64,000 bases of DNA from Candidatus Omnitrophota bacterium (GCA_016206785.1 JACQQV010000021.1:63509-127508); one strand, 5' to 3'. Shown: positions 22,007 through 42,384, counted from the first letter of the stretch. Made by a program: numbers and translations. The notes: a model not told the origin generated them from the sequence alone.

Positions 22007-22139
22007 AATAAACCCGAACTTTCCCGGATCGTCCATCTCTGTCACACCATATAATTAACTTCTGTCTCTTTTAACACAACCTAACTTGTTTAAAATAAAT
22101 TAATTAAGAAAATTTATATTGTTGCTTACCCGAAATATC

Positions 22140-24584: not shown

Positions 24585-25988
24585 TTAAACATGCTGAAGC
24601 GCCTCACCCCTTCCTCCAAATAAATTGTATTTTCTCATCTTATTATAGAGGGTGGTGCGGTTGACACCGAGAAGCGCGGCCGCTTTTTTACGATTCCAAT
24701 GGCACTCCTGAAGAGTTCTTAAAATCATCTCTCTCTCCGGTTCGCCGAGCATCTCTTTTAAGGAGCGGCTTGTCGTCTCTCCTCCTTCGGCAGAAACCGA
24801 CAGTTGATGAAAAAGATCGGGTAGATCTCCTTCGGTTAAAAGATCTCCATGCCCAACGATGGTTGCCCGTTCCATGACATTCTCGAGTTCCCGGACATTG
24901 CCCGGCCACTGATACGCTTCGATCGCCTTAAGAAACCCATCCGAAACACCCGAAAATTTCTTTTTGTTCTTCACTGAAAATTTTTTTAAAAAATGTTCGA
25001 TAAGGACAGGGATATCCTCTTTCCGCTCACGGAGCGAAGGGAGCCCAATCGCAATGACATTCAGTCGGTAATAAAGGTCTTCGCGGAACTTTCCTTGCTC
25101 GATGAGTTCTTCCAAATTCTGATTGGTGGCGGCGATGATCCGGACATCGACCCGAATGGTCTTGGTGTCGCCGACCCGCTCAAATTCCCCCTCCTGGAGG
25201 ACGCGGAGAAGTTTAACCTGAAGCGCCGGCGAAAAGGTGTCAATTTCATCCAGAAGGATGGTGCCGCCGTCCGCCAACTCGAAACGCCCCATCCGGTCCT
25301 TGATGGCACCGGTGAAAGCGCCTTTCACATGGCCAAAGAGTTCGCTCTCCAAAAGGGTCTCAGGAATCGCCGCGCAACTGACCTCCACGAAGGGTTTGTC
25401 CTTCCGAGCCGGATCATTCGCATGAATGGCCAAAGCGACCAACCGTTTCCCCGTACCACTTTCCCCCTTGATGAGAAGGGTCGCTTTCGTATCAGCGATC
25501 GTCTCGATCAAGGTATAGATCTTCTGCATCTTCTCATGTTTTCCAATGAGCTGATGGAAGGTATCACGGCCTGTGCGGGCCAGTTGCTGCCGGAGGGCGA
25601 TGTTTTCTTCGATGAGGTTTTTCTGTTCAAAAAGTTTTTTGATGACGATCTTGATCTCACCGTCCATGATGGGCTTGGTGATATAATCGGCCGCCCCAAG
25701 CCGCATCGCCTCGACCGCCTGATCAATCGTCCCGTAGCCCGTGATGAGGATCACGGGGATCTCCGGGTGCTTTTCTCTCACCTGCTTCAAAAGATCTATC
25801 CCGGAGAACTTCGGCATTTTGATGTCGGCGATCACGATATCGATCGGAAGCCGCTCGATTTTTTGCAGGGCCTCTTCCCCATCGGAGGCCATCTCCGCTT
25901 CATACCCTTCGAAACGAAGGGTTTCGTAGAGAGATTTCCGAATGAGTGGTTCGTCGTCGACAATGAGGATGCGTCCGTTACCTGGCAT
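24585..25988 (-). CDS. sigma-54-dependent response regulator (NtrC family; candidate PEP-CTERM-system regulator PrsR-like)
   Basis: Receiver domain [14 protein letters not shown]...D, AAA+ sigma-54 activator domain ([28 protein letters not shown]), and a C-terminal Fis-type HTH. The likely start is [10 protein letters not shown]; the track ORF starts at 26015. Confidence 0.9.
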
Positions 25989-27291
25989 AAACCGTAGACT
26001 CCTTTGGAACCGCATAATTTAAGGGGAAATGGACGAGGAACGTGGCTCCCCGACGCTCTTCACTTTCCACCTCAATCCGCCCGCCGTAGGAGCGGACGAG
26101 CTCATAACAGATGGAAAGTCCCAGACCGCACCCTTTGTCGATCTCTTTCGTCGTAAAGAACGGATCGAAAATGAAGGGCCGATTCTCTTTTGAGATGCCA
26201 CATCCTGTATCCGAGATACGTACCGTGATTTCATGGTCGCTGCGAAGGGTTGCGATCCGAAGTGTCCCCCCGTGAGGCATCGCCTCCAGGGCATTCTTAA
26301 TGACATTGGTAAAGATCTGGTCGATCCCTTTGTCCAGGAGTAACGGAAGGGCGGGATGGTACGCTTTAATGACTTGAACCCTGGAAGTATAAAAGTAATC
26401 GTTCAGGTTGGAAAGGACATCTTCAAGAACTTCATTCACATCCACCGGATTCATCGTGACGCGCTGGCGACTGGAAAAGGTGAGGAGGTTTTTGACGATA
26501 TTCACCATCCGGGTAAGGCCCTGTTTCACCTCCAGGAGATATTCCCGGACCATGTCCCCTTCCTTCAGGTGATTGAGAGAGAGATGAATGTAGCGAAGGG
26601 TTCCGTCCAGAGGGTTGTTCAGTTCATGAGCGATCCCCGCCGCCAATTTTCCGATCGAGGCCATTTTCTGAGAAAGTTCAAGCTCTGTTCCCAGTTGACG
26701 CTTTTCCTCCATCAGAAGGAGGGCGGTCTTGCGGGCTTCCTCCGCGTCATGATGAGACTTCTTGGCTTCGGCACCCAGATGTATCCTTTCAATCCCTTCG
26801 GCCACGTAAGAGGCGAAAAGGGTCATCCACTCCAGATCTTTGGAGACAAAGGGACGCTTCGATTTTTTATCGGTGAGGTTCAAGATGCCTAACAATTTCC
26901 CTTGAAAGACGATGGGGACAGAAAGGAAGGAGGTGGTACGGTAATGGGAAAAGCCGTTCCCGTTTTGGAACCGGAAATCGTTACGGATATCCTCAACCAG
27001 AATGGGAGATTGCCGGCTTGCCACATATCCCAGGATCCCCTCATCGAGCTTGCGCCTCACCTCCGGAAAGTGGGAGAGATACTCTCCAGAGGCCCCTTTA
27101 AGGACCAACTCTTTCTTGTTTTCGTCGACGAGGAAAAGGGATCCGACCTCCGCTTGAACCAGGTTGAGCGCTTCCCTTAAGGAGGTGTCTAAAAGGGAAT
27201 TAAGGAATTTTGCAGTTTGAATTCGCTCCAAAGCGGCCCGGAAACGGAGAATCGGGTCGAGTGGTTTACGTCGAAAGGTATCAAGAAACAT
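25978..27291 (-). CDS. GAF-domain sensor histidine kinase (cytoplasmic), 437 aa
   Basis: N-terminal GAF, H-box HELNNPLDG, and HATPase_c (GGTLRI...DTGCGI...GLGLSI). Confidence 0.8.
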   Translation of the reverse strand: MFLDTFRRKPLDPILRFRAALERIQTAKFLNSLLDTSLREALNLVQAEVGSLFLVDENKKELVLKGASGEYLSHFPEVRRKLDEGILGYVASRQSPILVEDIRNDFRFQNGNGFSHYRTTSFLSVPIVFQGKLLGILNLTDKKSKRPFVSKDLEWMTLFASYVAEGIERIHLGAEAKKSHHDAEEARKTALLLMEEKRQLGTELELSQKMASIGKLAAGIAHELNNPLDGTLRYIHLSLNHLKEGDMVREYLLEVKQGLTRMVNIVKNLLTFSSRQRVTMNPVDVNEVLEDVLSNLNDYFYTSRVQVIKAYHPALPLLLDKGIDQIFTNVIKNALEAMPHGGTLRIATLRSDHEITVRISDTGCGISKENRPFIFDPFFTTKEIDKGCGLGLSICYELVRSYGGRIEVESEERRGATFLVHFPLNYAVPKESTVYAR

Positions 27292-28159
27292 TTTTCTGTG
27301 TCCTCCTTGATGATTTTAACCGCTCAATCCGTTTTTTGAAAAGAGCGACATCCTTATGGTCGGGATAAGATTGGATGAATGATTCGTAGATCGCGATTCC
27401 TTTTTCCGGCTGTTTGAGCCGCAGGCTATAGGCATCGATCCTTGGAAAGTACATCCGACTCATCCTGGGATAGGTGAGAATAATTTCTTTAAGGACCTCC
27501 AGGGCTTTTTCCCATTTCTTCTGTTCCTCATACCCTCCCAGAAGATAGCTCATCGCCAAAAACTGTAGAGGTTTTTTAGGATGTTCCTGAATCAGTCGGC
27601 GGTAGTAGTCGGCCGCGGCCTCGTAACTTTCACTCCCCTTCTTACTGTCTGTCTTAAGGTCATGCCTTGCAATATAAAGAGGGATCTCAAGCCCGAGTTG
27701 ACTCTCCGGATACCGATCTCTTAAAAGACGGTACTCCTTCAAGGCCGCCTCCCAATGACCTTCCTTTTCATACGAGAATCCTACCAAGAATTGGGACCTT
27801 GCGTTAAAGGCCTTATCGTCGGGAAAATCCTTCCGGATCTTTGTCAAAAAATTTCTTCCCTCTTGATATTTTTTTTCGAAGATGAGGAGTCCTGCAATGG
27901 AGAGGTTGGATTCCTTGATCAAGGTGGGGTTCCCGGGATAATCTTTGATGATACCCTCAAAGCGTTTCCGTGATTTCTCGAACAAAGGGGGCGGCGTCGA
28001 CTCGGGGTTTACCACAATTTTCTGGGAGAGGGCCTTTGCTTTCCAAAAGCGTGTTTCCGTCGCATAGGTATTCTTTGAGGCATCCTTGGATCCCAAGTAA
28101 CGCAAACCCCCGTAGACCAGAAGAAGGAGGATCAGATAAACGCTAAGCGCTTTTTTCAT
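27281..28159 (-). CDS. TPR-repeat protein with signal peptide, 292 aa
   Basis: The N-terminus MKKALSVYLILLLLVYGGLRYLGS is signal-like. Multiple TPR-like repeats follow. Confidence 0.6.
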   Translation of the reverse strand: MKKALSVYLILLLLVYGGLRYLGSKDASKNTYATETRFWKAKALSQKIVVNPESTPPPLFEKSRKRFEGIIKDYPGNPTLIKESNLSIAGLLIFEKKYQEGRNFLTKIRKDFPDDKAFNARSQFLVGFSYEKEGHWEAALKEYRLLRDRYPESQLGLEIPLYIARHDLKTDSKKGSESYEAAADYYRRLIQEHPKKPLQFLAMSYLLGGYEEQKKWEKALEVLKEIILTYPRMSRMYFPRIDAYSLRLKQPEKGIAIYESFIQSYPDHKDVALFKKRIERLKSSRRTQKNVS

Positions 28160-29015
28160 GCCGTATCCTTAGAAAAAAGAGGGTTACACTCACCGCAATA
28201 AAGGTGTCGACGAGAAGCGTGGCCACGATCCCCACTCCCAAAAGCCAGACAATCGCTTCCGGCTGGAGGGTTCTTTGAACCAGAAAAGCGCTCCTTCCCT
28301 TCAAAAACCAGATCGGGCTATAACATAGCGCGGGAAAAAGGAGCAAAAGAAACACACGCCCAAAATGCCTCCCACCAAACACAATCCCTTCTCCGAGGGC
28401 GCGGAAGAATTTCTTGTTCTCAAGGACAAGGCAAGGAAAGATGAACAGGACAAGGGTTTGGATTGCGACGGCGATCAAGAAATTGAGGTAGCGAAAGCTC
28501 TTCGTGAGAAATTCAAGGGCTTTGCGTAGAAAACCCCTTCCGGCAAATTCAAACCCCGCCCTTAAAAAGGAGACCTCCCGCCCGCTCACAAAACCGAGCA
28601 GAAAAACGATGAACAGGGAGACGAGGATCAGAGCAAAGAGACGTTTTCTCACCTTCTTCCAGGCCGCTCCGAAGGTCAGGGGATGTCCTTCGGAGAGTGA
28701 GGCGGCCATTACGATCGTAACCGCAGTCAGGATCCCCCCAACGAAAATATAGATGAGAAGCTGGGCATACCCAAAAAGACTCGGCACAATAAAAAGGAAT
28801 GCCGGATAATGAAGACTGAATTCGCCAAAGAAACGCTTGATGGGAGGAAGAAAGAAGGTTTTTAAAGGAGGTTGAAGGCTAAAGCAGAGGATCTCAAGCC
28901 AGAGTGCTTCCAGAAACGCGACGATGGAAAGAGGTAAAAGGAGACGGGGTGTTTTTCGAATAAGATCATAGGCATCCAACCAGATATTTCCAAGTGTGTT
29001 CAATTTTTTAGACAT
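28143..29015 (-). CDS. polytopic membrane protein of unknown function, 290 aa
   Basis: ORF track. At least 6 hydrophobic helices. It is the first gene of the apparent operon with the TPR protein, histidine kinase and response regulator. Confidence 0.4.
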   Translation of the reverse strand: MSKKLNTLGNIWLDAYDLIRKTPRLLLPLSIVAFLEALWLEILCFSLQPPLKTFFLPPIKRFFGEFSLHYPAFLFIVPSLFGYAQLLIYIFVGGILTAVTIVMAASLSEGHPLTFGAAWKKVRKRLFALILVSLFIVFLLGFVSGREVSFLRAGFEFAGRGFLRKALEFLTKSFRYLNFLIAVAIQTLVLFIFPCLVLENKKFFRALGEGIVFGGRHFGRVFLLLLFPALCYSPIWFLKGRSAFLVQRTLQPEAIVWLLGVGIVATLLVDTFIAVSVTLFFLRIRHEKSA

Positions 29016-29048
29016 TGTTTATAGTTTACCATCCCTAAAAGGTAAGTC

Positions 29049-29094
29049 AAGTAAAAATTTAAAAAATTACAGGGGTAGATTTCTCTACCCCTGT
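29049..29094 (-). terminator. rho-independent terminator downstream of PEP-CTERM gene 29161..30189
   Basis: Perfect hairpin ACAGGGGTAGA-tttc-TCTACCCCTGT (29069-29094; 11-bp stem, 4-nt loop). On the minus strand a U-rich tract follows it (plus-strand aagtaaaaatttaaaaaatt, 29049-29068). Confidence 0.7.
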
Positions 29095-29160
29095 AACGTT
29101 ACACCGTCATTCCGAGGGAACCTATCTCATTTTACTACAACAAGTTAAGACTTGTATGAA

Positions 29161-30189
29161 TTACTTCTTAATCAGTCTTTTTCTCCCGAAGCCGGCCATC
29201 CCCAGAAGACCTGAACCTAACAGGAGCATGGATGAAGGTTCTGGAATAACGCCATCCGTTGTTGGGGGGGGAGGTGGTTCATTAATCCCCGCTCTCCCGA
29301 AAACGTGGAAAAGAGCCAGGAAGATGTTGTCATCATGAGAAGGGTTTATGGTTGTCACCGCGATAGTGGTATCCCCATCGGTAATTTGTGGCACGAGGTT
29401 GTACCGCTCATGATCCTCTGCATAGGTTGGGAGTAAAGGTGAGAAGGGATCATCAAAGCCGCCGACAGTAATCAATTGACCATTCGAAATAGAACCGATC
29501 CCATCATCATTGTTCCCGGCATTTTCTGTGATCGTAACGCCATTCACGGTGATCGTGGATCTCTGACCGCAACAGCTGAAGTTATCTCCGATGATCATTT
29601 CTGCAAAAAACCCTGCATCGGCCGGATGGAGCGGATCAGCAAAATTGATTGCCGTTGCATCCCCGCCAACTGCAGAAAAACCATCGAGGATTCCCACTGT
29701 CGCAACGGGGAGGGCCGGGTGAGAGTAAACGACGACCAGCGCCTCACCATCCTGACCTCCGAATCCCTCTGTCACCGTGAAGTTATAAATACCGCCCGGG
29801 CCTCCATCAATGATCGGTTTGACAATCCCGGTCACATCGGCACGGGCCGAGCCCAATCCACAACAGGCTGTTACATTGAATACACTCGGACCGAACGCAA
29901 CAGCATTTCCGTCTAATGTTGCGGTAGGAGCTGCCAGGCTGCCGAAAAATCCGGTGTAGAGATACGCGTTCAACACCGTTGCCCCCACGGGCACACTTGC
30001 GGAAATCGTGCCTGTCTGTCCTGTACTTCCGAAACCATCCGAGGAGTAGCCGACATTTCCCACAAACGTAACGAACTCTGTCAAGCTGGCATGCGCTACT
30101 CCCGCGACGCCAAGGGTGAGAAATGCCACCCCGATGACTGCCACGAACACCTTTTTCACGATAGGCCCCCTTCCCTGTTCATGGTTCAT
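29161..30189 (-). CDS. PEP-CTERM sorting-domain protein, 342 aa
   Basis: N-terminal signal peptide, Gly/Thr-rich body, and C-terminus VIPEPSSMLLLGSGLLGMAGFGRKRLIKK (PEP motif, TM helix, basic tail). Confidence 0.85.
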   Translation of the reverse strand: MNHEQGRGPIVKKVFVAVIGVAFLTLGVAGVAHASLTEFVTFVGNVGYSSDGFGSTGQTGTISASVPVGATVLNAYLYTGFFGSLAAPTATLDGNAVAFGPSVFNVTACCGLGSARADVTGIVKPIIDGGPGGIYNFTVTEGFGGQDGEALVVVYSHPALPVATVGILDGFSAVGGDATAINFADPLHPADAGFFAEMIIGDNFSCCGQRSTITVNGVTITENAGNNDDGIGSISNGQLITVGGFDDPFSPLLPTYAEDHERYNLVPQITDGDTTIAVTTINPSHDDNIFLALFHVFGRAGINEPPPPPTTDGVIPEPSSMLLLGSGLLGMAGFGRKRLIKK

Positions 30190-30210: not shown

Positions 30211-30537
30211 TTACGAGGTCTTCTTTCTAAACAACCTTCGAAGCCTTGAGCGACCGAGAGCACTACTGAGAAGTCCGGTGCCGAACAAAAGAAGGGAGCC
30301 AGGTTCTGGAGTATGGGCAAGGGTCGATGTTTCATTCCCATCACTCCCCCCATTTTCTGAAGAGACAAGCGTCACGACCCCGCTACTACTTCCGTAATAC
30401 TCTCCACCTGAACTCCCTGTTCCACTCAGTGCTCCTAAAAGACTGCTGAACGCCCCTCCCCCGCCTCCCTCCTCACAACCTGAAAGGAGGATAAGGAGAA
30501 GGGGTAAAAGGAGGAGAATAGATTTATCTCTGAACAA
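30211..30537 (-). CDS. small PEP-CTERM protein with lipoprotein-type signal, 108 aa
   Basis: LLSGC lipobox-like segment, Gly/Ser-rich body, and C-terminus TPEPGSLLLFGTGLLSSALGRSRLRR. Confidence 0.75.
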   Translation of the reverse strand: MFRDKSILLLLPLLLILLSGCEEGGGGGAFSSLLGALSGTGSSGGEYYGSSSGVVTLVSSENGGSDGNETSTLAHTPEPGSLLLFGTGLLSSALGRSRLRRLFRKKTS

Positions 30538-30579: not shown

Positions 30580-31221
30580 TTAGGCGGCGTTCCTTTTCCT
30601 TCTTGCAAACCCCAATGCGCCGAGAAGCCCTGACCCGAAGAGGATCATGCTGGTCGGTTCCGGAATGGTGGTATGGAATCCGGCATCCGGAATCCGGTCA
30701 TCGGGTGGTGCGCCTGCGTTATCCAGAAGGCTAAAGGTATTGAACCCTCCGAGCGGAAAGCTGGCAAACATCCCTGATGGGATACCATATTCCACCGCGG
30801 ATCCCAAGACGGCCGAGGGCGCGCCTCCGACAGGAGTTCCACTTCCATCGAAGACGGTAAAGCCTGAGGCACGGAAGTCAAAGATCCTGTCGGCCAGGTC
30901 TGTGAAATCACCGTCCGCGTTGGTATCGAGTCCTGTGGTGTAGAAAACAGGGTCGATCGGCGGAAGGATATCGAGCGACGTGAAGGTCGGCACCCCATAG
31001 AGTTCGATGAGGACATAAAGTGCCCCCGCGTCACTCTGCATCGCAACCCGCGAGATGTCATAGGCATCCGGGATCGCTCCCTCATTCGGGTCAAACCCGT
31101 TGATCAAAAGTCCTGCCACCCATTCGCCGGCGGAATTAATCCCGTCGACGACGACGGCAGAGGCATCACTGGTAAATAAAAGAAGTGATGCCATCACTAC
31201 TGCTAACGTTACCTTTTTCAT
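30580..31221 (-). CDS. PEP-CTERM sorting-domain protein, 213 aa
   Basis: Signal peptide MKKVTLAVVMASLLLFTSDASA. C-terminus IPEPTSMILFGSGLLGALGFARRKRNAA. Confidence 0.85.
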   Translation of the reverse strand: MKKVTLAVVMASLLLFTSDASAVVVDGINSAGEWVAGLLINGFDPNEGAIPDAYDISRVAMQSDAGALYVLIELYGVPTFTSLDILPPIDPVFYTTGLDTNADGDFTDLADRIFDFRASGFTVFDGSGTPVGGAPSAVLGSAVEYGIPSGMFASFPLGGFNTFSLLDNAGAPPDDRIPDAGFHTTIPEPTSMILFGSGLLGALGFARRKRNAA

Positions 31222-32012
31222 TCTATTTCCTCCTTTTTAAACAACGTTTTCTTCTTACGCTTTAATAATCCTAAAAGACCCACACCTAAGAGCCCAAAAG
31301 AACTCGGCTCGGGGATGACATGGAGACATCCTCCAAGTTGCGGGCAGATCGCCCATTCCTCAAACCCATCATTGGAGGCGAAGTTGGTGCCGAGTTGGGA
31401 ATAGAGATAAACAAAATCCGAGTCCGCGGCTGTTGTAAAGAGACTCTCCGGAATGTAGGCGAACATATCCCCCTTGCCGCTGCCAGGATTTAGGATGTAA
31501 TTCAACTTCACATAACTATCTCCCGCAGCATCGAGATCATAGATAGGAACGCCGAGAGAAGCAAGATTGGAGGTGATGCTACCGCTATTTTTAATGAAGA
31601 TTTGCAGTTCGTCCAACGAGAGGAAAGCATCCGGCGCGGTTTGGTTAATGTCTAACAAAAACTCGCGGTAATCGACACCATTAATCGTAACGACGGGTAC
31701 ACTCCCTAAGGTAATGGAATGAGTAAAGACTGGACTTGTGTTCACATCGGGCCAAAGAGGGAGCGGGCGACCATCTGTGTTATATCCCTCTTCGGTCCCA
31801 TTATGTTGAATGCGAACAAATGAATCAATGATGCCGGTCCCTGTTGCATGGCGGTTAAGGTCAGTCTGCAGGAAGAAAGCCCCATTAACGAAACCTGAGG
31901 AGGCCGCGGTTGTGAGGTCCAGGACGACCGCCTGCGCTTCGGAAACGCTACCCATAATGCCGATGCCTACCATCATGAGAAGAGCGCTACAAAAGAATAC
32001 GAACCGCTTCAT
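31218..32012 (-). CDS. PEP-CTERM sorting-domain protein
   Basis: C-terminus VIPEPSSFGLLGVGLLGLLKRKKK. The likely start is MKRFVFFCSALLMMV at about 32012. The track ORF starts at 32024. Confidence 0.8.
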   Translation of the reverse strand: MKRFVFFCSALLMMVGIGIMGSVSEAQAVVLDLTTAASSGFVNGAFFLQTDLNRHATGTGIIDSFVRIQHNGTEEGYNTDGRPLPLWPDVNTSPVFTHSITLGSVPVVTINGVDYREFLLDINQTAPDAFLSLDELQIFIKNSGSITSNLASLGVPIYDLDAAGDSYVKLNYILNPGSGKGDMFAYIPESLFTTAADSDFVYLYSQLGTNFASNDGFEEWAICPQLGGCLHVIPEPSSFGLLGVGLLGLLKRKKKTLFKKEEIE

Positions 32013-32023
32013 TCTCACCCCCA

Positions 32024-32824
32024 TTACCTCGCCCCTTTACCGGTTAAGACCACAACAAACGTGTTTACCAGAATCCGAAGATCGACCAAAAGACACATCT
32101 TGCGAATATAGAGAAGATCGTATTTTACTTTCTTCCGGACATCCTGAACCGTCTCGTCGTATTTGTGCCAGACCTGTGCAAGTCCCGTAATCCCCGGTTT
32201 GACCTTCAGTCTTCTCTCGTAATCCGGAATCGCTTCCCGAAGCTGATTCACAAATTCAGGCCGCTCCGGTCTTGGACCGATAAAGCTCATCTCCCCGCGG
32301 AGCACGTTCCAGAGTTGCGGAATCTCATCGAGGTGCATCTTCCGGATCCATTTCCCACCGGCAATGAGACGGGGGTCATTCTCTTTGGCCCAGACCGCCC
32401 CGGTCTCTTTTTCGGCATCCACACGCATGGTACGTAACTTATAAATGGTAAAGAGGACTCCCTCTTTTCCGACCCGCGCTTGTTTAAAGAAAATAGGACC
32501 TGGTGAAACGATCTTGATGAAGAGCCCAACAAGGATTAAAAGCGGAAGGGCCGAGAGGAGTCCGAGGAAAGATACGGTGCAGTCGAAAATTCTTTTAAAC
32601 TCCTGAAAACGGCGGCGGGCAAAACGGACGATCGCCCCCACTACGCCACCACCCCCCAATAAGATCGCACTGCTCGGTTCAGGAAGAACCGCGTGATTAT
32701 TCGCAAGGTCGCTGGCCGAAGAAGAACCGACGTAGAGAAACGAAGCCAACCCGATGAGGGCGAAAATGAATACTCCCACGACCAGTGCAATCCGGATTTT
32801 CCCTTTGAGACTTTTATGCGACAT
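32024..32824 (-). CDS. bacterial sugar transferase (polyprenyl-phosphate glycosyl-phosphotransferase, Bac_transf/EpsB-like) with an N-terminal TM segment and an internal PEP-CTERM-like motif
   Basis: The C-terminal catalytic domain is ...IVSPGPIFFKQARVGKEGVLFTIYKLRTM...DEIPQLWNVLRGEMSFIGPRPERPEF... The N-terminal region MSHKSLKGKIRIALVVGVFIFALIGLASF... contains VLPEPSSAILLGGGGVVGAIVRFARRR. The track ORF extends to 32926, but a sigma-54 promoter lies inside that extension, so the start is probably MSHKS at about 32824. Confidence 0.75.
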   Translation of the reverse strand: MSHKSLKGKIRIALVVGVFIFALIGLASFLYVGSSSASDLANNHAVLPEPSSAILLGGGGVVGAIVRFARRRFQEFKRIFDCTVSFLGLLSALPLLILVGLFIKIVSPGPIFFKQARVGKEGVLFTIYKLRTMRVDAEKETGAVWAKENDPRLIAGGKWIRKMHLDEIPQLWNVLRGEMSFIGPRPERPEFVNQLREAIPDYERRLKVKPGITGLAQVWHKYDETVQDVRKKVKYDLLYIRKMCLLVDLRILVNTFVVVLTGKGAR

Positions 32825-32894
32825 GAAACTTCTTTCTTTGTTCAGAGTTGAACCAAACAGGGCATAAAAATAGCGTGACATACTGTTATAAGAA

Positions 32895-32909
32895 GCATGT
32901 TTCGTGCCA
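32895..32909 (-). promoter_or_regulatory. sigma-54 (-24/-12) promoter on minus strand: TGGCACGAAACATGC
   Basis: Plus-strand gcatgtttcgtgcca at 32895-32909 is minus-strand TGGCACG-AAAC-ATGC, matching the consensus TGGCACG-N4-TTGC(W) with a single change (TTGC to ATGC). It lies about 70 nt upstream of the proposed MSHKS start. rpoN and a sigma-54-dependent regulator are encoded nearby. Confidence 0.6.
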
Positions 32910-33005
32910 ACTCCCTTTCTTCTCAAAAAAATTTCTCTGTTTTCATAATTTTTAACTCTTTTATCTACAATAAGTTACGAGATTATTTTTGGCCGTTTTT
33001 AGGAC

Positions 33006-33036
33006 TGTCTAGGATATACGTGGACATACTTAGACA
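33006..33036. promoter_or_regulatory. candidate enhancer/UAS dyad TGTCTA-N19-TAGACA about 100-130 nt upstream of the sigma-54 promoter
   Basis: TGTCTA at 33006-33011 and its exact reverse complement TAGACA at 33031-33036. The distance from the -24/-12 element is typical for a bacterial enhancer-binding-protein site. Confidence 0.3.
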
Positions 33037-33118
33037 ATCCATTCTTTTTTTGTTGATCAAACTCGACATCGTGTTGACGGTTCGTGTTGGAGGTTAACCA
33101 GTTAGCGGGTTGGCGAGT

Positions 33119-33742
33119 TCAGGCGTGGGGTTCTTGGGTTAAGATCGGGAGAAGTTCTCCGATAAACCGTTTTGCTGTTATGAGGGATTCCTCTTCACTC
33201 TTTGAAATCGGAACGATGATCCGGACCATAGCCCCTCCCAATCCCTTACCGGTCGCTTGCTTCATGACCCACCGGATCTGCTGAGTGAAGTAATCATTGG
33301 TGAATTCCTTGCCCAACATGTACCAATAGAGAACGACGTTTTGGCTCTTTCCCTCTCCGGCAAGGAGTCGGTTTACCGTTAGGGTTTGACCGGGAAAGGA
33401 AAGACTCTCCTTCGTCGTCTTTGTGACAGAAACCCCGCTTCCAATCAGACAGACGACCGGAGGATGGCAGACACGGCGGTTGGTTTCGGAATAGATCACA
33501 AACAGATCAACGGATTCACCCTTTTTGTTTCGATACTGCCGCAGGGCCAAATTCCTTGTTTCAAGAATCTCGTAATCATGGTCGGAGACGGCGACGTCAC
33601 TTGCTTTCCATTCACCGATCTCCATCGGAATTTCGCGGATGTCCCGAATATCCTTCTCCACCCTCTGCATCTGGTAAAAGTGGAAGGAAATGGCACCGAC
33701 GATGACGAAAAGGAAACTGCTGACAACCCAATGCTTCTTCAT
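33119..33742 (-). CDS. EpsI-family exosortase-associated protein, 207 aa
   Basis: N-terminal TM helix. ...GESVDLFVIYSETNRRVCHPPVVCLIGSGVSV... matches the EpsI signature. It overlaps the exosortase gene stop by 4 nt. Confidence 0.7.
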   Translation of the reverse strand: MKKHWVVSSFLFVIVGAISFHFYQMQRVEKDIRDIREIPMEIGEWKASDVAVSDHDYEILETRNLALRQYRNKKGESVDLFVIYSETNRRVCHPPVVCLIGSGVSVTKTTKESLSFPGQTLTVNRLLAGEGKSQNVVLYWYMLGKEFTNDYFTQQIRWVMKQATGKGLGGAMVRIIVPISKSEEESLITAKRFIGELLPILTQEPHA

Positions 33743-34545
33743 CGGAGAATCCTTCCGACGGTGGAGAGGCCACCCAGTGCGAGTCCGAACACGACGAATC
33801 CGGAGAAATCATGAAAGAATTTGAGGGCCGCTTCAACGCCGTAGATATCGGCGATACCTGCAAGAAGGATGATGCGGACGATATTGGCAATCATGGCGAT
33901 CGGAATGGAAGAAAGGAAAAAGAGCGTTTTCCTCGGAAAAGAGGCCTGTTTGAGATACGCAAAAAGGACGCCGAGTGTCAGAAGCGACAAAAGCGACCGA
34001 AGGCCGCTACAGGGATCTTCCACCGCAACCACCGCATTTTTCATGTAGATCAGATGACCTTTTTGAAGAGCGGGAAACCCGATCGCATGAAGTACATGGG
34101 TCGCACACATCGCTGCGAAAAGTTTAAGACGCACCGTCGCCGTTCCAACGACCACGAGGGGAAACGGAACCATGAAAAGGAGAAAGATTATCGGAAAGGC
34201 CGCCGCCCGAAGCATCTTTTTCCCCCAGAGAAAAAGCACGAGTCCCGTGACGGTTAAGAGGATGGAGAAGGCCGAAGTGAAATAGACCTTGATCAAAGCA
34301 CTCACCAGATGGACCAAGAGTCCTGTGATCAGCAGAGGAAGGCCCCATCGGGAGGGCGAAGGAACGATAGTGGCGATCTCCTTCCGTTTACGCCAAACCA
34401 GATAAAGACTCACAAAGGGAATCAAGAATCCATGGCCGAAATAGGAATCTTTCGCGCTCCAACGGTCCACCATCCAGACAATCGTCGGGAAATAAGCGAA
34501 GGTGAGCAGAAGACTCATGACACCGAGTGAAATCCACTTTTTCAT
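33739..34545 (-). CDS. exosortase (EpsH/Xrt family)
   Basis: Polytopic membrane protein with the exosortase Cys motif AVEDPCSGLRSLLSLL and the Asn/Arg motif IANIVRIILLAGI. The likely start is MKKWISLGVMSLLLTF at about 34545. The track ORF's extra 24 N-terminal residues are translated from the upstream repeat region. Confidence 0.85.
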   Translation of the reverse strand: MKKWISLGVMSLLLTFAYFPTIVWMVDRWSAKDSYFGHGFLIPFVSLYLVWRKRKEIATIVPSPSRWGLPLLITGLLVHLVSALIKVYFTSAFSILLTVTGLVLFLWGKKMLRAAAFPIIFLLFMVPFPLVVVGTATVRLKLFAAMCATHVLHAIGFPALQKGHLIYMKNAVVAVEDPCSGLRSLLSLLTLGVLFAYLKQASFPRKTLFFLSSIPIAMIANIVRIILLAGIADIYGVEAALKFFHDFSGFVVFGLALGGLSTVGRILR

Positions 34546-34566
34546 AGGGCTGTCTTCCCGAAAAAT

Positions 34567-34694
34567 TCCAATAACCAAATCACAATGACCAAATAAGCTC
34601 CAATACCCAAATTCCAAACACCAAACCGAGGTTTAATTATTGGTGATTGGTTCTTGGTGATTATTTGGAACTTGGAATTTGGTGCTTGGTGATT
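34567..34694. repeat. imperfect palindrome built from degenerate heptad repeats: ACCAAAT-like units at 34567-34626, a central gaggtttaatta, then ATTTGGT/TTGGTGA-like units at 34639-34694
   Basis: Left arm is ccaataaccaaatcacaatgaccaaataagctccaatacccaaattccaaacaccaaacc. Right arm is ttggtgattggttcttggtgattatttggaacttggaatttggtgcttggtgattg. The arms are approximately reverse-complementary. The structure lies in the GT2-exosortase intergenic region. Confidence 0.6.
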
Positions 34695-36608: not shown

Positions 36609-37618
36609 CTGGGTCTCGGCAGACCCACCCCGAACAGAATGTGGGCGATGGTATTGACCATAAAGAAATCGATCTGGCCCCACTCACGCGCAAGCTGTGC
36701 CAAAGGAGCCGTGGATCGAAAAATGGCAAAGATGACAAGATTTCCGACGAGGACAAGCCAAAGAAACCCGATGGGAACGGTCGTCCCAAAACGCCAAAGA
36801 TCGGACCTCTTCCCCGCGAACTGTTGCGATGTCCTCCATTGCCCTGTCCGGCTCAGGAGCTTACGTGCATAGAAGACATACCAGATAATGTAGTGGTAGA
36901 TGACGATTAGCGCAAACCGTTCTGCAGAGGTGAATAGAGGTTCGCCAAATGGCTGCGCCAAACACAAACCGCCCAGAATGCCCACCGCGCTCCATCCAAA
37001 AAGTGAACGGGATGAACGGGGGGCAGGCAGGAGATAGTACCATCCGTACGCGATCCAGAGGACCGTCCAGAGGGCAGCCACAACCGGCAGCGCCCTATGC
37101 CACATATGATCTGCCATCGCCAACTGATCGATCAAGACCAGACCAACCGCCAGCGTCACCCAGAAGGTGCCACGTGTTGTCCAAGCGGCCGGCTGATACC
37201 CGTTTGCCGTCTGCTGCCTGAAAAGAACCTCGTTGGAGGCATGATGGGTCATAAACACCGCTTCGACGAATAGGAAATTTACCTGCGTGGGCAACCACCA
37301 TCTCAGCAAAGCGGCATAAGCGCCCATGACTGTGAGGAAGGCGGCAAGGTACCCGAAGGCGGCCGGCAGATTCCCATATCGTCGACAGACTAACCTCCAG
37401 GTGAAGATGTAGGCCAGGGTGAAATGTCCGTAGCCAAGAAAGTTGCGCATACGGATGATGTTCAGAAAGTGCAAGAGATTCGCACTCGCTGCCCACGCCA
37501 GCAAAAGAAACAGACACCCCATGGACCATGCCGTCACGCTTCCGTAATCGTAGAGTCCGGGGTGCGAGAGGCTGACTGATTGGGCAGAAAGAGTCACGCT
37601 GGACTGATGTTGTCTCAT
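36605..37618 (-). CDS. polytopic membrane protein, unknown function, 337 aa
   Basis: ORF track. At least 8 hydrophobic helices, rich in Trp/Tyr. Confidence 0.4.
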   Translation of the reverse strand: MRQHQSSVTLSAQSVSLSHPGLYDYGSVTAWSMGCLFLLLAWAASANLLHFLNIIRMRNFLGYGHFTLAYIFTWRLVCRRYGNLPAAFGYLAAFLTVMGAYAALLRWWLPTQVNFLFVEAVFMTHHASNEVLFRQQTANGYQPAAWTTRGTFWVTLAVGLVLIDQLAMADHMWHRALPVVAALWTVLWIAYGWYYLLPAPRSSRSLFGWSAVGILGGLCLAQPFGEPLFTSAERFALIVIYHYIIWYVFYARKLLSRTGQWRTSQQFAGKRSDLWRFGTTVPIGFLWLVLVGNLVIFAIFRSTAPLAQLAREWGQIDFFMVNTIAHILFGVGLPRPR

Positions 37619-40600
37619 TCTGCACCCTTTAACGATTCAATGGCCTGCGCGATCCGACCTCGTAACTCCAAGAGACCCTCCGGCTGTTTCGGGTATTCTC
37701 GCATCGAACGGGCAAGGGTCTCCGCATCATTTAACGCCGTCTCTGCCTGTTGAATGGTCTCTGCCAGGAGACTCCCCTTCGCTTTAGCCCTTGCAATCTT
37801 ATCCGACAGAATCGCAATCATGTCATAATCCTCCATCCCATCGCGTAGTAGTTCGAGACGGATGGAACCGACCGGACCCTCCGGGCCCGGATAGAAAAGA
37901 ACCCCATTGTCGTTCTGTTCCCACTTGGTGTTCTCCGGATTGGTGTAGGGGTTTACGGTCCAGAAGTTCACGCACCAATAGAGAAGCCCTGTCACTTTGT
38001 ACTTCCAGCACATCCAAGGAAGAATCCGGTAGGCCATCATCGGGTAATCGATCACAAAGGTCGGATAGGGATAGGAGGGACCTGAACAATAGATCCAAAG
38101 TTCCTTTCCCGCTTTTCTAATCTCTTCCGCCTGTGCGGGGTCGAAAGAGACGTTTCTAAGACAAACAATATCGATATCCTTAAACCAGTCCGCATATGAA
38201 GAGTACATCGGCGTTTCCATAAGAGTGACCATATTCCTCAGGAAAGGGCTTGCTTGATGAACCTTCTCTGCGACTCTCGCGACCTTCTCTGTACCGGCAG
38301 GAGATTCATCAGAGGTGTAAAGATAAGAGCGGTCGAGGAGATTGTGATCTCGTAAAATGGCGGCGTAGCTCTGATAAAGGGGGACAACGGGGGTAAGGTC
38401 TGCTGGCCAATTGTTTCCGCTGCTCCCACTATATTTTCCGATACCGAAAGAGGTCATTCCAAGATTCAAAAGGCGCTTGACTCGCTCAATACTTTCTGGT
38501 CTTGCCGGATCGATATTGAGGATCGGAGAAATCCGATAGCGAAGCATCCTCTCGTAATACCGGTCTTCCAATTGGGAAATAGATTCTCGCCACTTCGGCC
38601 ACCAATCGGGAAAGAAATTTTGATAACCGTCGACCAAACGACCCGTATAGAGGTCAAAAGCGGTCTTGAGGCGTGGGGTCTTCGGAAGTTCAAAGTCCCA
38701 AATGTGTACCTCAAGAGCTACTTTCTTCTGAGGACCATTTTTGGGTTGAATGAAAATTGATCCTTGATAAAGACCGGCCGGTGTCCCGGGGGGTGCGTAG
38801 ACGGTCACCCAAATCGGCTGAAGCTTCCCTCGCTTCACGTCAAAAGTTTCTTTTGAAGGAAGGGGATCGGGAACAAAGCCGATCAGTTCCGGGAGATACT
38901 GTGTTTTCCTGAGTTCAACATATCCGACCGGATAGGTCACGATTTCTTTTTTGTCAATCTTAGTGCCTGTCGTCGCATTCACAAGGTCTTCTGCCTGAAT
39001 CCGAACCTCTTTTAAATCCCCCGCGAGAGAAGAGAGAACGATCTGCGTCGATTCGTATTCGTTGGCAGCGAGGGAGAGTTGAATCGGATTGGCATGCCCA
39101 AGACCTTTGAATGGGGCATCTCTGAGAACCCTTTGGAATGGAGAAACAATTCGCACCTCGTAATCGAGGCCTTTGGCTTCGGACTTGGCAACGATTTCCT
39201 CTTCTTTCTTTTCATAGTAAGGTTTAAGAAAAGAGGGATTCCTGACACCGAGCAAATAAGGAACCGTGTAAAGAAGCGGGGGGACCCGATCATAAGTGAT
39301 TTTGCCGAAGACCATCCCGTTCCGGAGCGGATCTTCACTACGGTCCTGGGCCTGAATCTGCGCCATGAGTCGGCGACGGCCCTCTTCCATATATTTTGCC
39401 TCGCCGGTGAGTTCGTACGAATAAGCGAGCGCATCGAAGAAAGGAAGATACTTTTCGTTCTGAATCAAATAATCGGTCCCTTTTAGGATTGCCTCTTTGA
39501 CACGGGGATTACCCGTGAGACGATGATACGTGATGAGAGACGGAAGGGTATGAAGTGCCATAAATCGGCTATCCGATTCATCCGGCCAGCTGTCCGCGCG
39601 GGGGTTATAGTCTTTCGCCCAACTTCCGTCTTCTCGCTGGCCCTCCACAAAGAGAGCGGCCCACCGGTCAGCCGCTTCCTTATATCGCTTGTCGCGCGTT
39701 GCCTGATAAAGGAGGGTCTCACCCCAGAGGAGATTGGCAATCGCCCGTTGAGGGGCGATATCCGGATGTCGGGTATAGGTAATCGGGTTCTTGAGATAAA
39801 AACTTCCGACCTCTTTCGCCACATCAAAAGAGCGTTCATAACCGGTTAAATAATAATAGAGAAGAAAACCGAGGAGATGCGTATGGGAGGCCTCATCGGA
39901 GCGTCCTCCCCAATGGTTTGCGTTATGCCGGTGCATCGCTCCCACATGGCTATGGTCACTGTAGATTTTTCCCTTAAGCCGAGGATCCCTCTCAACCATG
40001 TCATAGTGGATGGTATCGACATCCATGATGTGACGGGAAGAGGCTTCCCCAAAAGCAAAATATTTGTAAAGGCCGGTCCTTGCAAATTGTAAAAGGGACG
40101 CTGCATGCGTTCCGACCTGTTCGCAGTTAAACCAACCCCATCGTCCCTCGGGATGCCAACCCCATTCCGGATAGGATTTATCATAGGCATCTTTGCGATA
40201 CCAGAAACGGGTGTCTCCATAATCGAGCATCCCGTACCAGCCGAACGCCTTCGGCTGTCGCGCCGCCCAATCAAAAAGACGGGCGATGAGTTCCTCCCCT
40301 TCCACAGAAACTTGGTGAGGGCCGAGAGATCCGAGCGCGTAACTGACGTACACCCACTCGGGGTCTGCGTGAAGAATCGGTGGATGCTGAAAAGCACTCA
40401 GCGTCTGATGAAGGGTTTGGGGTTCCGCAACACCTGAATGAAAGGAGAAAATAAGTTCATGAGTCTTACCGAGTCCGAAGGCGGAACCGCGTGCGACCGC
40501 ATCGGGCCCATAGGCCGCATCCTGTGTTTCGAGATTGAGTGGACCTGCCGAACGAGGCCAGAGAGAGATCTTGATTTTCCCTGCAACATCCACAAGGATC

Positions 40601-42384
40601 TCCTTGGGATATTGCTGCCAGAAATCTCTGACAAAAACCGAAGTCCCTGAGGAAAGGGACGAAAGATTCACCCACCCGGACGCCTCTTTCCCTTCATGAA
40701 TCACATCCGTTCCTTGCGAAAGACGGAAAAGATCCTGCTTGGGCTGGGAAAGGAGCAAAGGTCCTTTCATCTTCCCAACGAGAACCTGCGTGGGAAGACC
40801 GACCTGATAGGCGGTCTCTTTCTGGGTAGGAGAGGAATGCTCCATCGCAATCTCTTCAATCGTTTCGTTCTCAGGGAGACCTTTGACATCTTTATATTCA
40901 TGATGGTAGATATTTTCAGGATAGCCGGTATAAATAAAGGTGTGATAGACGCGAACGTCGCTTTTCCCTGCAAAGGCCTGGATCCGAACGTTATACTGAC
41001 AGAATTTCTTTCCTTCTGCGTTCCGAAACCAACCACTCGCCTTGAGGGTTACCCGCAGAGGTCCTCGCTCTTCAAGCTTTAGAGAGTACTCTTCCGCATC
41101 CAAGGAAGAGCGGTACTCGCTTCCTCGAAAACGGATCACAAGGTCTCCTCCCCCATCGGCTACCTTTTCATCCTCTAAAAATTGTTTATCACCGTTTAAA
41201 TCCAAAAAGGCCTTTTGGAAAAGGGTAAAATTCTTTTTGCTCACGGAAAATTGCAGAGGACCTGTCGTGATTGTGACTGAGGAGGGATCTTCTGAAATAC
41301 GAAGAGGACTCTCTGGTTCAGTGGGCGGGGGTGTTTGATGAATTTCAAGGAAAAGTTTTTTGTCTGCCGTCCCCTGAGGAAGCTGCGTATCTACAAGAAG
41401 CCACTGGATGGAACCATCTTCCCAAAATCCCAGAGGACGGATTTGAAGCGGAAGTTCCTCCCCCTCCGCCGTCATGAGTCGGAAAGAAGTCGTGCTACTT
41501 AAAAGTCCATAAGGAAATGGAACCCCCCCAGAGACTGGAAATCTGTCAGGAAGCGTAGCGGTGAGGCTCGCAACTTTGATGGGAACTTGCAAGAATGTCT
41601 CTCCGCTTGTCTTGGAAACGGCCTGCCATTTCTTCGCGACCTGTTGAAACAGGAGACCGCTCACGACATTCGGAGAGTTTGCAGTGATGGACCCACCAAA
41701 CGGCTCTTTCTCTGAGGCCGCCACAGGAGTTTGTGGTTCAGGAGCGCCCTCGAGTTCCGGAGAAAGACGAGATTCCTCTTGTCGAGCCTTTTTCTCCTTC
41801 GGGATCAGCTTAACGTCGTCGAGGAAAAAGATCGCGGCCGTTTTTGGATTCCAGCGGAAAAAATTAAGTTGGACGATCTCTTTCAGATCGACAAAAGAAG
41901 CGATATCTTCAAGAGGAACCCTGTAAGAAAGAGAGTTGTTCGCCGGGATGTACATATCCTCTTTATAACGGCGGTCCTTTCTATCCTTAATCTGAAGGAT
42001 GAGACGCTGCTGGGAAGACCCGGGATTAAACAATGTGAAGACAAGGGTTTCATAACCCCGCCAGTCCCTCGCCTTTTTGTTCTTCTCGAAGAAGTCTTCC
42101 ATCATAAAAGTGGGGTTCTGATCCCCCCCATAGGTGAGCTTGGCGGAATGCCTACCGCGGGCAACATGTTCATCGGAAAGAAATGCAGAAACGTTTGTCG
42201 CTTCCCATCGTTCCAAATCTTTTTCGGACTCAAAGTCGCCAAGCATGAGTTCGCCGGAGGCGAAAATGAACTCTTCCTTTGACCTTCTTCCCTCCCCTTG
42301 ACCCTTTTCATGAGACCTGGATAGAAACTGCCCTATCGCGATTCCGAGGAGGAGAATTGCTCCAATCTGAAACCATTTTTTCAC
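37615..42384 (-). CDS. giant secreted multidomain protein (1589 aa) with a central alpha/alpha-toroid-like (glycosidase/lyase-like) region and a C-terminal DUF4091/GH123-like domain
   Basis: The N-terminus is signal/TM-like: MKKWFQIGAILLLGIAIGQFL. The central region carries W/Y-rich repeats: ...WYGMLDYGDTRFWYRKDAYDKSYPEWGWHPEGRWGWFNCEQ... The C-terminus ...ELWIYCSGPSYPYPTFVIDYPMMAYRILPWMCWKYKVTGLLYWCVNFW... resembles DUF4091-type glycoside-hydrolase domains. Confidence 0.65.
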   Translation of the reverse strand: MKKWFQIGAILLLGIAIGQFLSRSHEKGQGEGRRSKEEFIFASGELMLGDFESEKDLERWEATNVSAFLSDEHVARGRHSAKLTYGGDQNPTFMMEDFFEKNKKARDWRGYETLVFTLFNPGSSQQRLILQIKDRKDRRYKEDMYIPANNSLSYRVPLEDIASFVDLKEIVQLNFFRWNPKTAAIFFLDDVKLIPKEKKARQEESRLSPELEGAPEPQTPVAASEKEPFGGSITANSPNVVSGLLFQQVAKKWQAVSKTSGETFLQVPIKVASLTATLPDRFPVSGGVPFPYGLLSSTTSFRLMTAEGEELPLQIRPLGFWEDGSIQWLLVDTQLPQGTADKKLFLEIHQTPPPTEPESPLRISEDPSSVTITTGPLQFSVSKKNFTLFQKAFLDLNGDKQFLEDEKVADGGGDLVIRFRGSEYRSSLDAEEYSLKLEERGPLRVTLKASGWFRNAEGKKFCQYNVRIQAFAGKSDVRVYHTFIYTGYPENIYHHEYKDVKGLPENETIEEIAMEHSSPTQKETAYQVGLPTQVLVGKMKGPLLLSQPKQDLFRLSQGTDVIHEGKEASGWVNLSSLSSGTSVFVRDFWQQYPKEILVDVAGKIKISLWPRSAGPLNLETQDAAYGPDAVARGSAFGLGKTHELIFSFHSGVAEPQTLHQTLSAFQHPPILHADPEWVYVSYALGSLGPHQVSVEGEELIARLFDWAARQPKAFGWYGMLDYGDTRFWYRKDAYDKSYPEWGWHPEGRWGWFNCEQVGTHAASLLQFARTGLYKYFAFGEASSRHIMDVDTIHYDMVERDPRLKGKIYSDHSHVGAMHRHNANHWGGRSDEASHTHLLGFLLYYYLTGYERSFDVAKEVGSFYLKNPITYTRHPDIAPQRAIANLLWGETLLYQATRDKRYKEAADRWAALFVEGQREDGSWAKDYNPRADSWPDESDSRFMALHTLPSLITYHRLTGNPRVKEAILKGTDYLIQNEKYLPFFDALAYSYELTGEAKYMEEGRRRLMAQIQAQDRSEDPLRNGMVFGKITYDRVPPLLYTVPYLLGVRNPSFLKPYYEKKEEEIVAKSEAKGLDYEVRIVSPFQRVLRDAPFKGLGHANPIQLSLAANEYESTQIVLSSLAGDLKEVRIQAEDLVNATTGTKIDKKEIVTYPVGYVELRKTQYLPELIGFVPDPLPSKETFDVKRGKLQPIWVTVYAPPGTPAGLYQGSIFIQPKNGPQKKVALEVHIWDFELPKTPRLKTAFDLYTGRLVDGYQNFFPDWWPKWRESISQLEDRYYERMLRYRISPILNIDPARPESIERVKRLLNLGMTSFGIGKYSGSSGNNWPADLTPVVPLYQSYAAILRDHNLLDRSYLYTSDESPAGTEKVARVAEKVHQASPFLRNMVTLMETPMYSSYADWFKDIDIVCLRNVSFDPAQAEEIRKAGKELWIYCSGPSYPYPTFVIDYPMMAYRILPWMCWKYKVTGLLYWCVNFWTVNPYTNPENTKWEQNDNGVLFYPGPEGPVGSIRLELLRDGMEDYDMIAILSDKIARAKAKGSLLAETIQQAETALNDAETLARSMREYPKQPEGLLELRGRIAQAIESLKGAE

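Follow-up and report, generated by a model that had tools for sequence, protein, structure and literature searches.

Sigma-54 promoters that work with an activator plus IHF are well established (glnAp2 with NtrC, nifH with NifA and Pu with XylR). For PEP-CTERM genes, control by sigma-54 has, to our knowledge, been predicted in Proteobacteria only and tested in a few floc-forming strains. A 17-nt motif ending in TTTACA (motif 1) was described ca. 63 nt upstream of the sigma-54 motif before 99 of 167 proteobacterial PEP-CTERM genes, with a phylogenetic profile that matched PrsR, PrsK and PrsT and was stated to be shared by Proteobacteria only (PMC1569441). The pepA gene of Aquincola tertiaricarbonis RN12, a betaproteobacterium with PrsK/PrsR, is RpoN1-dependent, and its start site has been mapped (PMC9850573). 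A literature search returned nothing relevant on Omnitrophota in combination with PEP-CTERM or exosortase regulation. Here, we analyzed a stretch of 64,000 nucleotides from a Candidatus Omnitrophota bacterium (GCA_016206785.1, JACQQV010000021.1:63509-127508; the whole stretch is referred to as the window). Very probably, a sigma-54 promoter in it is real, is preceded by an enhancer and has been conserved among uncultivated Omnitrophota; the logic would be the same as in Proteobacteria but with other regulator proteins and another enhancer sequence.

The minus strand of the window carries an exopolysaccharide/exosortase locus that begins with glycosyltransferases, followed by a 1589-aa protein, a deacetylase, a GT2 enzyme and then the exosortase. 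Both the exosortase (generic model TIGR02602, 174.4 bits vs a cutoff of 105.55) and EpsI (TIGR02914) passed their family thresholds, the former scoring just under the cutoff for XrtA (TIGR03109, 197.9 vs 208 bits). The 1589-aa protein (37615-42384, minus strand) had no NCBIfam match and is kept in the loci of the closer relatives; PcRGLX and GH123-like domains in its homologues point to a putative polysaccharide lyase or hydrolase. Next to EpsI, there is a priming sugar transferase followed by four genes whose products carry the sole PEP-CTERM tails in the window.

33739 to 34617, minus strand: exosortase
33119 to 33742, minus strand: EpsI
32024 to 32824, minus strand: priming sugar transferase (PF02397), 266 aa from the ATG at 32824, opening the unit; a PEP-CTERM-like anchor lies inside the protein
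31218 to 32024, 30580 to 31221, 30211 to 30537 and 29161 to 30189, minus strand: four PEP-CTERM genes, closely spaced or overlapping and presumed to be co-transcribed

Syntenic loci were found mainly through the protein database, by transferase homologues at 57 to 77% identity, and a metagenome scan contributed two useful loci (L082 and L083). The syntenic set used throughout consists of 10 loci, all from Omnitrophota (L162, L164, L165, L166, L167, L168, L169, L170, L171 and L083). Another locus from the metagenome scan, L084 (59% identity, outside this set), had no sigma-54 site. Scanning a contig collection with the transferase gave catalytic-domain matches only, at 55% identity or less, in unrelated phyla and with no synteny, and these loci were reused as the control set.

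The gap between EpsI and the transferase contains a series of elements, all on the minus strand, which are given here from the start codon upwards, followed by one related copy found at the other end of the PEP-CTERM genes.

32825 to 32882, minus strand: predicted 5' untranslated region (UTR) of ca. 59 nt, with similar blocks in L164 and L165
32825 to 32926, minus strand: spurious N-terminal extension of the transferase, 34 codons from a TTG at 32926, which covers the promoter
32883, minus strand: predicted transcription start, 12 nt 3' of the -12 C, derived from the -24/-12 geometry
32889 to 32911, minus strand: extended promoter block GTTGGCACGAAACATGCTTCTTA (kTTGGCAyrg-N-TGCTTATAT in the relatives), scored with a position weight matrix (PWM) made from the relatives' sites only
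32895 to 32909, minus strand: sigma-54 -24/-12 core TGGCACGAAACATGC, with the GG at 32908-32907 and the GC at 32896-32895, kept in 10 of 10 syntenic loci
32953 to 32977, minus strand: dyad TAACT-N15-AGTTA, rich in AT, with its centre near -82 relative to the predicted start, a candidate site for IHF/HU-like bending or for a second regulator
33002 to 33040, minus strand: enhancer-like array of GAYTGTC/TGTC boxes in 10-bp phase, which includes a dyad and the box pair GATTGTCTAAGTATGTC (33039-33023)
33065 to 33077, minus strand: further conserved block with TCAACAC and another TGTC box (-159), from the upstream alignment (A1) and the box positions
29123 to 29147, minus strand: second TAACT-type copy TAACTTGTTGTAGTAAAATGAGATA, 20 of 25 positions identical to the first and on the same strand

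A near-consensus sigma-54 site with a single mismatch at 32895-32909 was the central claim of a preliminary description of this DNA, and both its position and its mismatch count were confirmed. The core, spelled TGGCAC-N5-ATGC, is placed in the 294-nt gap between EpsI and the sugar transferase, 70 nt 5' of the ATG at 32824. The distance from GG to GC is the canonical 10 nt, and the one departure from TGGCACG-N4-TTGC is at about -15, where T is replaced by A. No other site in the window has one mismatch or fewer to this consensus; 0.61 such sites are expected per window by chance and 48 of 100 shuffles contained at least one, so the match in the window is not significant alone. The consensus scan at up to two mismatches was noise (43 sites found vs 38.9 expected in the window). 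With the PWM built from the relatives, leaving the window's own site out, the extended block scored 21.5 bits and ranked second of 127,956 positions, the next tier lying at 10.4 bits or below. The position scoring above it, TTTGGCATGGTTCATCCTTAAAT (54602-54624, plus strand, 23.6 bits), was dismissed as a promoter: it has no -12 GC, lies inside a minus-strand coding sequence and is not accompanied by upstream boxes, and the match is probably due to chance.

In the established -24/-12 geometry, transcription starts ca. 12 nt downstream of the GC. An AGTATG block at the start predicted in this way is kept in close relatives, and the longer AAGTATG is conserved in L162, L164 and L165. The predicted 5' UTR contains a small hairpin, GTTCA-actc-TGAAC (32838-32851, minus strand), followed by AACAAAG, and similar stems are found in L164 (GTTCAA/TTGAAC) and L165. 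No Rfam match was obtained between 32500 and 33400. The 8-mer AGTATGTC occurs twice on the minus strand, once in the second TGTC box (33023-33030) and once at the predicted start (32877-32884), and the copy at the start may serve the protein that binds the boxes as an operator.

The assignment to sigma-54 comes from comparative evidence rather than from the match in the window by itself. All 10 relatives share the order exosortase, EpsI, gap, sugar transferase, PEP-CTERM genes, unknown protein and TPR protein. The sigma-54 activator and the PocR/GAF protein are also kept wherever the contig is long enough (the activator in seven of seven such loci), and the GAF kinase is retained in the closer subclade only; the distant subclade has a small protein of 99 to 127 aa in its place. 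Within 700 nt around each transferase start, every one of the 10 loci has exactly one match to TGG[CT]A[CT]-N6-TGC, and the PWM of these sites gave no second site of at least 14 bits in 148 kb of syntenic loci. The same regular expression is found in unrelated loci (3.4 Mb) at 2.2e-5 per nt, i.e., ca. 0.0055 per 250-nt upstream region. Counting the window, the site precedes the transferase in 11 of 11 loci with invariant GG and GC, and the longest stretches without variation in alignment A1, in which mean column identity is 60%, are TGGCA and TGC. L162 has the perfect consensus, TGGCACGGAGGTTGC. Even in L169 and L170, where ORF6N-type genes have been inserted after EpsI, the promoter is still directly 5' of the transferase. 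This position, maintained in all 10 relatives, supports the proposal made in the preliminary description that the element is the promoter of the sugar-transferase/PEP-CTERM operon. In the distant subclade, a small open reading frame (ORF) of 38 to 45 aa (..KDIDVYL..) that is absent from the window lies between the promoter and the transferase (L168, 4200-4319; L169, 7877-8014; L170, 7880-7996).

It had also been noticed that the transferase ORF, when begun at the TTG at 32926, runs across the motif, which is indeed the case, and argued from this that its first 34 codons are not translated. Several comparisons agree. The identical NCBI protein, from a Candidatus Omnitrophica metagenome-assembled genome, has 266 aa and begins at the ATG at 32824, and most homologues have about 248 to 262 aa. 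Nine relatives were examined, and in five of them an in-frame stop codon interrupts the extension 3' of the sigma-54 site and 5' of the start codon; where the frame is open, the conservation of the translated extension does not exceed what the DNA motif demands. The 34-codon extension is, on this comparative evidence, an ORF artefact, and gene callers have made the same over-extension in L162, L164, L165 and L171. The N-terminal 75 aa of the transferase proper (32824-32600, minus strand) consist of a signal-peptide-like helix, a linker of ca. 12 aa, P-E-P, a second hydrophobic helix and a basic cluster, RFARRRF, which is unusual, and the PEP has been kept without exception in 21 of 21 homologues. 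By its sequence features, this N-terminus is best described as a sorting signal of the PEP-CTERM type that is internal and joined directly to a PglC-like catalytic domain. The PF07589 score of the transferase is below threshold (15.7 vs 20.7), yet the domain appears among the precomputed Pfam domains of some homologues. A literature search found nothing relevant on a fusion of PEP-CTERM with a phosphoglycosyl-transferase.

Further upstream, the window contains the dyad TGTCTA-N19-TAGACA (33006-33036), expected 0.05 times by chance, which extends to 10-nt arms (33002-33011 and 33031-33040) complementary at nine of 10 positions. From the centre of the dyad, it is 113 nt downstream to the -24 GG and ca. 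138 nt to the predicted start. The location and the enhancer distance attributed to this dyad in the preliminary description both stood; the 6-N19-6 form did not turn out to be the conserved unit, as it is limited to the closer subclade. There, the dyad is made up of the first box and an inverted box, and its symmetry has been kept with two positions changed on both arms. The conserved unit is, as far as the alignments indicate, a phased, position-locked and enhancer-like array of GAYTGTC/TGTC boxes, spanning about -155 to -120 from the predicted start. All the TGTC boxes are on the same strand, with GAYTGTC as the core box. Counted from the T of TGGCA, TGTC is found at -127/-117 in the closer subclade vs -125/-115/-105 in the distant one, the layout of the latter being ATGAYTGTCAT and then GTATGTCAT, and there are more TGTC boxes near -147 and -178. 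Between -150 and -95, the syntenic loci contain 25 TGTC vs 1.9 expected. The anchored alignment shows no indels between the array and the -24 element over more than 100 nt, the distance being fixed within 2 nt. Nearly all syntenic loci have exactly one GAYTGTC-N6-TGTC, at the array position, and the 158 unrelated loci have a single one between them.

Between the array and the core, TAACT-N15-AGTTA is perfect in the window and five relatives, has one or two mismatches in most others, and sits at a fixed distance from the -24 element in the relatives. Its left half conforms to an invariant YAA-N4-TT and runs into an A/T tract, and the TAA-N4-TT and G-T columns show no variation in alignment A1. 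Compared with the IHF consensus WATCAANNNNTTR, it resembles the reverse of that sequence, but its GAT core is degenerate and the site is symmetric. The second copy is found 3' of the last PEP-CTERM gene and ahead of the terminator, a position kept in L164 (10184) and L166 (11237), and a third, weaker copy is found upstream of rpoN (22082-22106). In the region between a LOG-family gene and rpoN (22027-22106), this third copy is preceded at 55 nt by a box pair with one mismatch, GATCGTCCATCTCTGTC (22027-22043, plus strand), both being upstream of a sigma-70-like TTGCAT-17-TAAAAT and of rpoN. The layout is enhancer-like but is not accompanied by a -24/-12 element, and it could be either a chance similarity or an input of the regulator to rpoN.

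The 3' border of the unit and the genes beyond it are as follows.

29066 to 29097, minus strand: intrinsic terminator with a 14-bp stem and a T-run, predicted to end the sigma-54 unit
29023 to 29050, minus strand: sigma-70-like promoter TTGACT-16-TGgTAAACT for the regulator operon, with counterparts in L164 and L166
23524 to 29015, minus strand: regulator operon, its synteny kept in every relative that reaches far enough, made up of the next five genes
28143 to 29015, minus strand: unknown protein of 290 aa
27281 to 28159, minus strand: TPR protein
25978 to 27291, minus strand: soluble GAF-HisKA-HATPase histidine kinase
24585 to 26015, minus strand: NtrC-family activator with REC, Sigma54_activat (AAA+) and HTH_8 domains, GAFTGA and Walker A intact
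23524 to 24549, minus strand: PocR/GAF protein, last gene of the operon
22190 to 23527, plus strand: rpoN, encoding sigma-54 (TIGR02395, 422.9 bits vs a cutoff of 277)

The presence of rpoN, an NtrC-family activator and a GAF histidine kinase near the promoter, pointed out previously, was thus verified through profile scores and domains. The rpoN gene converges on the PocR/GAF gene. This adjacency of rpoN and the regulator operon is found in the window only when compared with L162 and L164, in which LOG-family, PilZ and beta-CASP genes come directly after the PocR/GAF gene. The terminator stem is conserved as sequence (ACAGGGGTAGAG....CTACCCCTGT) and not just as structure in L164 (10238-10265) and L166 (11313-11338), loci at about 71 to 76% protein identity, and the counterpart of the sigma-70-like promoter is found there at the equivalent place as TTGACA-17-TAGACT or TTGACA-17-TAAACT. 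The conserved terminator and the promoter following it place the regulator genes outside the sigma-54 unit and indicate that they are expressed separately; most likely, transcription from the sigma-54 promoter is limited to the transferase and the four PEP-CTERM genes, from ca. 32883 to 29066 (ca. 3.8 kb). No terminator was predicted between EpsI and the sigma-54 promoter, and the operon could therefore be expressed by upstream read-through as well.

What we observed, i.e., the sequence elements, their conservation, their fixed spacing and the gene content, would be explained by a genuine enhancer-dependent sigma-54 promoter of the transferase/PEP-CTERM operon, and we consider this explanation likely. 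The model, in which the start site, the pairing of proteins with elements and the signal sensed are all predictions, would work as follows. Sigma-54-RNA polymerase would bind TGGCAC-N5-ATGC (32909-32895) and initiate near 32883, giving a transcript of ca. 3.8 kb for the priming sugar transferase and the four PEP-CTERM proteins that would stop at 29097-29066. Open-complex formation would need an AAA+ activator, most likely the NtrC-family regulator (24585-26015), phosphorylated by the adjacent soluble GAF kinase. This regulator would bind the phased GAYTGTC/TGTC boxes, the dyad among them, and a DNA bend at TAACT-N15-AGTTA near -82 would deliver it to the polymerase. The regulator genes themselves would be made independently of the sigma-54 promoter, through their own sigma-70-like promoter. 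A different activator encoded elsewhere in the genome could act at the sigma-54 promoter instead.

The two upstream elements might have their roles exchanged, the activator binding TAACT-N15-AGTTA and the TGTC boxes being sites of another regulator or auxiliary sites. The TAACT dyad is the most uniformly conserved upstream element in both subclades, 43 nt separate its 3' end from the -24 element, which is inside the range of 32 to 92 nt between the predicted PrsR motif and the sigma-54 motif of Proteobacteria (PMC1569441), and its copies before the promoter of the regulator operon and upstream of rpoN are what autoregulation would lead one to expect. However, half-sites 20 bp apart with an AT-rich spacer and YAA-N4-TT suit IHF/HU-type bending better than a Fis-type HTH dimer, and -82, between the array and the promoter, is the usual place of bending sites. 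The half-site spacing, the spacer and this location are the reasons for which we favor the TAACT dyad as the bending site, and we favor the TGTC array as the activator site for its classical enhancer distance (-110 to -150) and its several phased sites, as expected for oligomerising activators. We regard the exchanged assignment as possible but unlikely, and it would alter the wiring and not the promoter class. An alternative of another kind takes the dyad as an RNA stem-loop that ends the exosortase-EpsI transcript, as a stabiliser or weak terminator, instead of a DNA enhancer. Five close relatives retain the 10-bp stem (86% of cells paired vs 26 to 40% with the partner slid), two of its pairs have changed on both sides, and RNA folding gave z scores of -4.8 in the window and -3.0 in L166. 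In L162, L164 and L165, however, stability did not exceed that of shuffles (z of +0.5 to -0.6), the distant subclade has no equivalent stem and no T-run follows the dyad. Besides, an RNA 3' structure would require neither a 10-bp phase nor a distance of more than 100 nt to -24 that varies by 2 nt at most, and the stem-loop seems to us an improbable substitute for the phased enhancer array.

The class of the promoter itself would change if a sigma-70 promoter, TAGACA-18-AATAAT (33011-32982), or transcripts reading through from exosortase-EpsI accounted for the expression of the operon, with the sigma-54-like motif non-functional. The sigma-70-like site matches at 10 of 12 positions and overlaps the right arm of the dyad, and the lack of a predicted terminator 3' of EpsI would fit read-through, but no relative has a sigma-70-like site at that position (the matches in L164, L167, L168, L170 and L171 are elsewhere). 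If TTGGCA is taken as a -35 element, the spacers in the window are just 13 to 14 nt and there is a fit, a weak one, in only three of 11 loci, and sigma-70 leaves the invariant GG and TGC at exact spacing unexplained; we hold this reading to be very improbable. A functionless chance occurrence would agree with the number of matches expected per window at one mismatch, but with same-position conservation in 11 of 11 loci at the background rate per upstream region given above, and with the upstream elements conserved together with it, chance is scarcely credible and appears effectively refuted by the comparative data.

With the enhancer-dependent sigma-54 promoter as the preferred reading, the same logic would now be extended to a candidate phylum without cultured genetics, with non-orthologous regulators and a different and very rigid enhancer grammar. 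The succession GAYTGTC-N6-TGTC, then TAACT-N15-AGTTA and then TGGCAY-N6-TGC provides a search signature for the regulon in Omnitrophota metagenome-assembled genomes. The definition of the operon marks out cell-surface-coat genes that are likely to be co-induced, and a recurrent gene-start error, the over-extension of the transferase ORF across its promoter, has been corrected. A wider reading, which we put forward as tentative and rather doubtful, is that of a circuit specific to the phylum and non-orthologous to PrsR, controlling a surface-coat operon whose priming transferase would be PEP-anchored and docked or processed by the exosortase. Its components would be the soluble GAF kinase, the NtrC-like activator, the PocR/GAF sensor, the phased GAYTGTC boxes and the symmetric bending site. 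If true, protein sorting would be physically coupled to glycan priming.

The predicted layout of the Omnitrophota promoter is the same as that of glnAp2, nifH and Pu, with activator sites at ca. -110 to -150, an AT-rich bending site and a -24/-12 core, whereas its boxes match no known NtrC, NifA or XylR sites and the candidate bending site is symmetric (TAACT-N15-AGTTA) in contrast to the asymmetric IHF consensus of Escherichia coli. The best NCBIfam matches to the kinase and the regulator were AtoS/AtoC, with the same domain architecture in the regulator and a similar kinase core, but the scores were far under the equivalog cutoffs (478.5 vs 714 and 188 vs 646) and the genomic context is unrelated. 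RN12 pepA shares with this locus a PEP-CTERM gene, a promoter of the TGGCAC/-12 TGC type and an upstream enhancer sequence; it has a mapped start and genetic dependence on rpoN, whereas the Omnitrophota promoter is predicted from comparison (PMC9850573). The proteobacterial PEP-CTERM system is the one that bears the closest resemblance. Both have a -24/-12 element before the start codon (70 nt here vs a mean of 71 nt) and a conserved activator-type motif upstream of it (PMC1569441), as well as an NtrC-family REC-AAA+-Fis-HTH regulator, a histidine kinase and a TPR protein near an exosortase/exopolysaccharide locus. The host group is different, Omnitrophota here vs Proteobacteria (PMC1569441). 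Motif 1 is absent, no TTTACA being found in the 190 nt upstream of -24, where there are GAYTGTC boxes and TAACT-N15-AGTTA instead. There is one promoter for an operon of five genes, the transferase first, in contrast to the many single-gene PEP-CTERM units in Proteobacteria. The three regulatory proteins are below the cutoffs of their proteobacterial counterparts: the kinase scored 97.7 vs 300 bits for PrsK (TIGR02916), matching in the catalytic core alone, and is soluble with a GAF domain unlike the transmembrane PrsK, and the TPR protein scored 22.4 vs 312 bits for PrsT (TIGR02917). The activator, called PrsR-type in the preliminary description, belongs to the NtrC family but obtained 424.5 bits vs the 502.6 of the PrsR cutoff (TIGR02915), which makes the name an analogy and not a membership. 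By these profile scores and the architecture of the locus, the Omnitrophota system is best regarded as an analogue of the proteobacterial PrsK/PrsR/PrsT system and not as a member of it.
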